Positions 42,427-43,844 of a DNA stretch of 64,000 nucleotides are shown here, piece by piece. Under the pieces are notes generated by a model that saw only the letters and a list, made by a program, of their open reading frames with translations, was not told where the DNA came from and did not search any database. Within the stretch, counting starts at the first letter, position 1. Each line of letters begins with the position of its first letter. A program made the position numbers and the translations under genes. The stretch is from Nitrospinales bacterium (GTDB taxonomy: Bacteria > Nitrospinota > Nitrospinia > Nitrospinales > VA-1), in contig OZ253496.1 of the NCBI GenBank assembly GCA_965262115.1, positions 1,792,001 through 1,856,000 on the forward strand. The letters are read 5' to 3'.

Positions 42427-42458
42427 ATGAATATGGCCCCCTCTTTTTCAAAGTACCC

Positions 42459-43638
42459 CTTGTATGTTGTTCATAAGGGAAATTTGTAATAGTTGTTCCT
42501 GCGAGTTCTGTGAAAAACCGGTTTTTGGTTTTCCACAAGCTCCCAGGATTTGATTCAGGGCACAATAGATCGTTTACCCCTGGGGCTTTTAAGCCCGTCC
42601 CGCAGCGCAGATCGTTGTGTCCTATTTTGATTAACCCGAACAGTTGCCTGGGACTTTGAGTCCGCATCGACAAGGTTGGGAGACCAAATTATGCATCAGA
42701 AACTCCATTTTATTGGCATCGACATTTCCAAAGCGCATTTAGACATTGCCTATTCGTTAACCCAAGAAACCTGGCAAACCGCCAACGATGAAGCAGAGAT
42801 CACAGCTTTGGTCAAACGTTTAACCTCTTTGAATCCTCCATTGATCGTCCTTGAAGCCACAGGCGGTTTGGAGGTCCCGTTGGCTTCGGCCCTGGTTGCG
42901 GGTCGACTGCCAGTAGCCGTGGTCAACCCACGGCAAGTTCGTGATTTTGCCAAAGCCACCGGGAAACTGGCAAAAACCGATGTCATTGATTCTCTTGTGC
43001 TGGCCCATTTTGCCAGGGCCATACGCCCTGAGGTCAGGAAAATCAAAGACGAAGAATCTCTTGAACTCTCAGCTCTGGTGACACGCCGTCGCCAGTTGAT
43101 CGAGATGCTGACCCAGGAAAAAACCCGTCTAAAACAAGCTCCAAAATGGATATGTAAAGACATTAGAGAGCATATCGAATCTCTTAAAAAATGCTTGCGT
43201 AAAATCTAGGGTGACCATAGCTATCCGGGACAGTTCTGTCTGGCATGAGCGCGATCGGATCATCCAAAGCTTGCCCGGCGCCGGGCCCGTATTGTCGCCT
43301 GTTAGCCGGTGTTCCCGAGTTAGGAACCTTAAACCGGCGGCAAGTTGCCGCACTGATCGGTGTCGCTCCCCTCAATCGTGACAGCGGAAAGTTCGGTGTA
43401 TCCGGGGCGGACGCGCCAATGTGCGTGCCGCTTTATACATGGCCGCCGTCACTGCCATGCAGCATAATCCCGTGATTCGTACATTTTATAATCGCCTCAT
43501 CGAAAAGGGCAAACCGTTTAAAGTCGCCATTACCGCAGGCATGAGAAAATTATTAACGATCATCAATACCATGATCAAAACAAAAACGCTCTGGAATGAA
43601 AATCTCATTGCCAGCACTTGACATTTAACACAGTTGCT
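42459..43638 (+). mobile_element. IS110-family element copy 2, transposase inactivated
   Basis: Same ends as copy 1; ORF from 42691 stops at TAG 43207-43209, later frameshifts and deletions. Confidence 0.9.
42475..42684 (+). ncRNA. Predicted IS110 bridge RNA, copy 2 (ends approximate)
   Basis: TACCCCT 42575-42581, CCCGCAG 42599-42605, ACAGTTGC 42640-42647, ACAAG 42670-42674. Confidence 0.75.
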
Positions 43639-43844
43639 GCGGGGCATGAAGGCTAATGTTGGGGACACCACAAACACCGATGGACAGAGACAAAAGATTC
43701 CCTCCCTTCATATGGAGGGACTTAGGGAGGGTTGGATTGACCGCCCGGAGTTTTGTCATCGCGAATCGCGAAGCGGCGTGGCGACCCAGGTTCTTTCATT
43801 GGGAATTGAATTAATATTGCAAGGCTGGATTGCCGCGCTCCTTT

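Follow-up and report, generated by a model that had tools for sequence, protein, structure and literature searches.

The two IS110 copies in the window (the whole 64,000-nucleotide stretch of Nitrospinales DNA analysed here) probably belong to a bridge-RNA system that picks its sites by pairing with a dispersed hairpin repeat. The second of them is probably a broken sister of the first, carrying C in place of A in its right guide, that inserted once in a G allele of the repeat. The features of the two copies and their surroundings are as follows; target positions are numbered P1 to P14.

18365 to 19278, − strand: IS3-family OrfB half bearing the repeat that hosts copy 1
19279 to 20479, + strand: IS110 copy 1 (A-guide type), ends read directly
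19394 to 19402, + strand: left guide of copy 1, with the base after the guide at 19403
19420 to 19426, + strand: right guide of copy 1, CCCGAAG, variable base at 19424
19512 to 20462, + strand: recombinase gene of copy 1, intact, 316 aa
42452 to 42458, + strand: left target of copy 2, P1 to P7; the split 41-nt repeat starts at 42454
42459 to 43638, + strand: IS110 copy 2 (C-guide type), frameshifted and mosaic, with the left and right CT cores at its ends
42558 to 42622, + strand: predicted target-binding loop of copy 2, including the outer stem
42573 to 42581, 42582 and 42583 to 42596, + strand: predicted left guide, linker and inner stem-loop of copy 2
42599 to 42605, + strand: right guide of copy 2, CCCGCAG, variable base at 42603
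42640 to 42676, + strand: predicted donor-binding loop of copy 2, including its hairpin
42640 to 42648, 42670 to 42674 and 42675, + strand: predicted left donor guide, right donor guide and handshake base of copy 2
42691 to 43621, + strand: recombinase pseudogene of copy 2, DEDD domain intact up to codon 172
43618 to 43623, + strand: −35 box TTGACA of copy 2, part of the predicted junction promoter
43637 to 43865, + strand: right flank of 229 nt common to both C-guide copies, ending within a second repeat at 43848
43639 to 43672, + strand: right target of copy 2, P10 to P14, and the remainder of the split hairpin repeat; P10 is G, at 43639

The left end of the element consists of 231 nt of non-coding DNA upstream of the gene and contains the predicted target and donor loops; four guide segments lie in the 5′ non-coding region of each window copy, and both copies have conserved donor ends. 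Both ends carry a CT core, with no extra target duplication and no long terminal inverted repeats. In a profile search the copy 1 protein matched PF01548 (E 2e-24) and PF02371 (E 2e-20), and the catalytic residues D11, E55, D97, D100 and S235 are present as judged by motif and by alignment with ISCro4; those of IS621 are D11, E60, D102, D105 and S241 (PMC11208158). Sequence matches to this protein in the PDB were two in all, the recombinases of ISCro4 and IS621, the latter at E 6e-30. Relative to copy 1, the gene of copy 2 has undergone three deletions (5, 5 and 10 nt) and reaches a stop after 172 codons; its first frame retains PF01548 and the remainder is frameshifted.

Across the joined ends of both copies, TTGACA, a 17-nt spacing and TATGTT form a sequence match to a predicted circle-junction promoter of the kind known for IS621 (PMC11208158). 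A promoter scan of the linear left end gave no hit, in keeping with a promoter that forms at the junction. With the non-coding region upstream of the gene and the right end 17 nt past the stop codon, the element falls outside the IS1111 group. These sequence features place both copies among the IS621-like IS110 elements, and a bridge RNA is predicted for each. The intact 316-aa recombinase, open in 15 of the 21 full-length A-guide copies in the genome, makes this a candidate active bridge system; six of those 21 share a 10-nt deletion that is also found in copy 2.

An Rfam scan of 19200–19600 yielded no family that reached its gathering score. Below that level, the whole of the sX15 model (RF02234) aligned to the bridge-RNA region on the − strand (19365–19521) at 35 bits, under the 55-bit cut-off, with an E value of 2e-4. 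It may be that sX15 is an IS110 left end; a literature search for sX15 together with transposase returned nothing.

Insertion boundaries were set by comparing 7 empty with 10 filled IS3-borne sites. The insertion core is the start of the three-base loop of the 41-nt hairpin repeat, and P10, the base faced by the variable guide base at 42603, is the free middle base of that loop. On the opposite strand the loop reads G-N-A. Such loops are stable whatever N is, and the predicted hairpin energy is identical across all four loop alleles. The original prediction recognised two loop variants; there are four, free ACCCCT-N-CGGGG sites numbering 146 genome-wide (A 44, G 40, C 33, T 29). Three of the five free sites that it named, at 7152, 41221 and 62846, are full, but the left half is degenerate in those at 43933 and 62889. 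The three full sites lie at the following positions.

7152 to 7166, + strand: free full target, G allele
41244 to 41258, − strand: free full target, G allele
62846 to 62860, + strand: free full target, T allele

Among 311 looser matches to the repeat, P10 is mixed and P9, P11, P13 and P14 are nearly fixed. A subfamily of about 70 of these 311 has P8 and P12 swapped jointly, by which the core becomes GT, and it holds none of the 24 guide-bearing copies. The loop-allele shares of free repeats vary strongly among relatives: T 233, G 87, C 20 and A 20 in G013; T 42, G 59, C 26 and A 9 in G019; T 12, G 9, C 11 and A 3 in G015; and two G sites with no other allele in G016. No depletion of the T allele beyond occupancy was seen in the present genome (G000), where T accounts for 51 of all 170 sites, a share similar to that among free sites in G019 (42 of 136).

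The claim that guide and target vary together had been made from two copies. The genome has 26 right ends, 22 with an A guide, 2 with a C guide and 2 without a guide, one of which (C1:2282898) lacks a base at P10. The letters reported for the window copies are correct: copy 1 has CCCGAAG facing CT-TCGGG, and copy 2 has CCCGCAG facing CT-GCGGG. Tabulation over the further copies in this genome, which had been proposed as a check, gave the same association for the A guide. All 22 A-guide right junctions have T at P10, a base found at 29 of the 146 free sites. These junctions are distinct, in that two copies sharing one right end were counted once and C1:2034347 was included, and they are non-independent: ten of them are on one and the same IS3 half, whose other half is shared by seven of the copies. 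Clustering by right flank gave 11, 9, 6 or 4 classes depending on the threshold. The Fisher P value for the association of A guide with T site was 4e-7 at 10 classes and 1e-4 at 6; four classes, taken with a T share of 0.3, give a P of about 0.008.

The two C-guide copies each occupy a G site. Only 4 of 1175 bases distinguish them, both are frameshifted, and they share 229 right-flank bases; because of this shared flank and near-identity, their match to a G site counts as one independent event. Counting them as two independent insertions was rejected because of the shared right flank. A naturally reprogrammed active element would show several independent insertions of the altered guide into the altered target; here there is one independent right flank, in two frameshifted copies. 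The chance of one C-guide event landing in G is 40/146, or about 0.27, and a comparison of A and C classes (10/0 versus 0/1) gave a Fisher P of 0.09. Further C-guide copies on the repeat numbered zero in 102 genomes of the order, 120 genomes of the phylum (many of them fragmentary) and viral contigs. Choice of the repeat allele by the right-guide base has good support, both from the A-guide copies and from the wider family.

Relatives were sought in 61 genomes, in GTDB contigs and in metagenome contigs (best 80 of 149 and best 80 of 388). This gave at least 184 loci with a recombinase, of which 17 were dropped as repeats of one place or for bad offsets; three dropped loci were re-added by hand along with copy 2, 15 were without the donor-guide motif, 156 were kept and 135 were parsed. 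Among the parsed loci, taken without the window copies, 71 distinct guides have a right target; Watson-Crick pairing at P10 occurred in 67 of these 71, compared with 18.7 expected, and involved all four letters. At P11, P12, P13 and P14 the corresponding counts, again without the window copies, were 65, 66, 64 and 64. Expected right-guide pairings from shuffling ranged from 18.7 to 26.7 of 71, and kinship makes the shuffle P values overstated. Every C guide in this set (21/21) has G at P10 of its target. The left guide matches P3–P7 in 55–72 of 76 cases and shows no match at P1–P2. Among 17 close pairs, two of which include a window copy, the target changed at 17 of 23 positions where the guide had changed and at 5 of 62 where it had not. 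Inner stem pair 3, which the search pattern did not impose, is paired in 95/95 loops by six pair types, pair 4 is paired in 81/95, and the handshake bases fit the post-exchange rule in 81/83 and 66/80.

Copy 2 is likely a reprogrammed derivative, a dead mosaic that represents one independent insertion. We judge reprogramming likely because its C is unique among seven guides of the clade and fits the site in which the copy sits. Over the 68-nt target loop it differs from copy 1 at two bases, the linker and the right-guide base. Elsewhere it is a patchwork: the middle is 92–100% like copy 1, sequence further 3′ is 92–97% like the G013 element, and part of the 5′ gene is 72–81% like any element compared. 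The other C-guide copy is at G000:C1:1931073; the tract that the two share ends inside a second repeat, and taking this tract out of C1:1931073 leaves one ordinary 41-nt repeat. The window copy retains a composite repeat found elsewhere in the genome, and is therefore likely the original. Short-read contigs from runs X1 and X2 contain a C-type-specific piece of 282 nt with no differences, and short-read contigs cover 43609–43865 before continuing into other DNA. Across X1–X4 only A appears at 42603 and 43224–43287 is uncovered, so that these contigs confirm neither the C nor the frameshifts; contigs drop minor variants, and the C is not thereby shown to be absent. As regards the proposal of natural guide reprogramming, the link between guide base and allele is supported and derivation is likely, but the C case is one event with the chance of about 0.27 given above.

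By analogy with IS621, the element would circularise, its joined ends would form a promoter, and the resulting RNA would load the recombinase. The left guide would pair with P3–P9 on the bottom strand and the right guide with P8–P14 on the top strand. A right-guide mutation facing P10 would still find 30–45 perfect sites and hence survive, and changes elsewhere in the right guide would lose nearly all sites. The presence of A, C, G or T at the P10-facing base in close relatives would then come from a filter by available sites, not from adaptation. The C-guide copy presumably broke later and was then patched from A-type copies by recombination. A single duplication, which took in about 230 bases of flank, would have followed with no new choice of a G site. 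Two routes could have produced this duplication. In half-match recombination, a circle would have closed between the left junction and the core of the next repeat, and the T-T start of the recipient would suit an A guide acting in trans. Gene conversion, with a tract ending in the conserved bases of the repeat, would fit equally well.

In an IS3-family element present in 17 copies in G000, the 41-nt repeat lies between orfA and orfB; 10 of the 17 orfB halves are joined to IS110 and 7 are empty, and at three of the seven empty sites P13 has changed from G to T, which would mismatch the guide. None of the IS3 copies has a matching target duplication, several share outer flanks, and the haplotypes of the A-type IS110 copies form a patchwork over 32 columns. 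The scrambled IS3 flanks and the IS110 patchwork suggest that the repeats have recombined heavily with one another, or that copies were mixed in assembly. At G000:C1:2144620–2144783 a partial left end of 163 nt precedes a full copy in tandem; the two meet at a CT within the bridge-RNA gene, and the partial end looks like a right-donor-only half-match product. At G000:C1:2518280–2519446, truncated IS110 pieces stand in inverted arrangement on either side of an IS3 half.

Close relatives that use the same repeat fit their sites less well. All seven guides of this clade read TACCCC on the left, and the other four right-guide bases are fixed, one wobble excepted. The P10-facing base is A in G000 and L111, C in copy 2, G in G013, G016 and G019, and T in L138. 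The G-guide element of G013 sits in T, as does the T-guide element of L138; the five junctions of G016 (G guide) are T, T, T, C and G, if the sole assembled guide represents all five. In G015, where the guide was not assembled, 17 of 19 junctions are T and 2 are C. Among sequencing runs, X7 and X8 have A as the P10-facing base and X5 has both A and G; X12 has A and G together with a C obtained by subtraction, at a depth of 2.3. The inferred C-guide contig of X12 has T as its linker. A further X12 contig (depth 2; window 42589–42647) exits the element right after the DNA of the left donor guide and then enters the core and the right half of the repeat, as if the guide DNA were an element end.

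The poor fit of these clade relatives means that T may be favoured apart from the guide. On this account the recombinase or the target hairpin would prefer T at P10, the guide base would be of minor importance, and the match of copy 2 would be due to chance, at the value of 0.27 above, or to half-match insertion. T does dominate occupied sites in the clade whatever the guide (17/19, 3/5, 1/1 and 1/1 in G015, G016, G013 and L138), the free sites of G015 being T 12, G 9, C 11 and A 3. ISPpu10 provides a precedent in which a target stem-loop adds specificity, according to a preprint (10.64898/2026.03.19.712850). G-T wobble accounts for the G-guide cases, however, and the pairing at P10 in the family, with all four letters, as well as the equal predicted energies of the four hairpins, argue against a fixed preference. 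In the IS621 report, mismatch tolerance was low at all nine non-core positions (PMC11208160). We therefore regard this reading as unlikely, and continue to favour selection of the site by guide pairing.

Could the guide instead track its target adaptively? To say that the guide was reprogrammed to follow sub-variants of the repeat implies adaptation, and nothing here shows it: close relatives with G or T guides are mostly in T sites. One related reading, a three-level arms race in which IS110 lineages divide a mobile 41-nt repeat by a single guide base and IS3-borne copies escape through P13, is quite improbable. Adaptive tracking as such, in which guide variants are selected for opening unoccupied alleles, co-resident types divide the repeat and the repeat escapes by mutation, seems to us very improbable. 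It draws on the occurrence of all four letters at the P10-facing base among seven clade guides, on the co-residence of guide types (A and C in G000, A and G in X5, and three in X12, C again by subtraction at depth 2.3), and on the P13 change in three of seven empty IS3-borne sites. Yet the supply of sites has not run out, with 29 T sites still free; 40 free G sites remain uncolonised by the C type, which is broken; and the T share of all sites in G000 is like that of free sites in G019. A neutral filter predicts equal variability at the P10-facing base, and the P13 change may have arisen once and spread as IS3 was copied. Retention of guide changes for which sites are available thus remains the preferred reading.

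The base after the left guide had also been reported to change in step with the right guide. It does so in the two window copies (T at 19403, G at 42582), but the family shows no covariation: this base matches P10 in 18 of 71 cases, with 17.4 expected, and is complementary to the guide base in 23 of 88, with 22.1 expected. Among 22 C guides the linker is T in 12, A in 6 and G in 4, and its predicted pairing probability with the right-guide base is 0.00–0.04. The corresponding base in IS621 is the linker U59 (PMC11208158). On these grounds the base was rejected both as a tenth guide pair and as an RNA partner of the right guide. Templated rewriting, in which linker and right-guide base changed jointly, strand switching within the imperfect palindrome of the loop DNA having copied them from one another or from a target with the G allele, would explain why no other base of the 68-nt loop differs and why these two mirror P10, and the depth-2 X12 contig suggests that guide-coding DNA can serve as a recombination end, but the reading is barely credible against the linker data just given, the T linker of the inferred C-guide contig in X12, and recent single-step guide changes with an unchanged linker in L139/L142 and L094/L105.

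Two further differences between the copies proved to be ordinary variants. The donor-loop hairpin, described as showing a compensatory swap, is kept in both copies, but its register is shifted by one base and the changes are not compensatory in the same columns. The right donor guides read GCAAG and ACAAG as stated, but ACAAG is not special: that place is G in 133 of 147 elements and A in 13, and in IS621 it forms a non-canonical G-T pair (PMC11208158).

Guide-target covariation and natural redirection are already published for IS110 elements, and the principle is not new. The IS621 report describes covariation in 5,511 natural target pairs and target motifs concordant with 16 natural guides (PMC11208160), and natural reprogramming has been reported for ISEc11/ISXne4 and ISEc21/ISMch6 (PMC11187229). 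Titles and abstract openings in the literature yielded no paper on the present element or on co-resident single-base guide variants that address alleles of one repeat, and supplements may list it. What the locus offers is a clean natural test of single-base specificity, in which four alleles are near-equally common and 22 copies use the one that pairs. It also shows that a guide can drift freely where the target base facing it is unconstrained, a point relevant to how such elements shift to new targets and still keep one.

Like IS621 (Durrant et al. 2024, PMC11208160; Hiraizumi et al. 2024, PMC11208158), the element has a CT core and target and donor guides in the same order, and it shares the handshake bases, the DEDD and serine set and the junction promoter, here predicted from sequence. 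Insertion into dispersed palindromic repeats and guide-target covariation across natural elements are also common to both (PMC11208160). Unlike IS621, it has a distant protein (E 6e-30), other guide and target sequences and a five-base right guide; its target is a lineage-specific 41-nt hairpin repeat with a free loop base at P10, and two guide alleles occur in one genome. ISPpu10 of Pseudomonas putida is likewise an IS110 element that targets a stem-loop repeat, and it has been linked to segmental duplication; its stem-loop is described as 5′ and as involving the left target, whereas here the core itself is at the loop (10.64898/2026.03.19.712850). Half-match and expanded IS110 products, as described in two preprints (10.64898/2026.08.31.748434; 10.64898/2026.08.14.744561), keep a single donor boundary. 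Products of this kind would account for the second C-guide copy, with the 229-nt flank that it carries, as well as for the partial left end at C1:2144620. In contrast to expanded IS110 elements, the cargo here amounts to a few hundred bases, made up of repeats, and gene conversion explains the data equally well.

The closest parallels are ISEc11/ISXne4 and ISEc21/ISMch6 (Siddiquee et al. 2024, PMC11187229), in which altered guides are found in correspondingly altered targets; as with ISMch6 (PMC11187229), the case for redirection here rests on a single copy. Those pairs are reported to be 72% identical, to reside in different hosts and to differ at 3 or more bases (PMC11187229). In the present system, by contrast, one pairing base differs within one chromosome, and the two targets are alleles of the same repeat.
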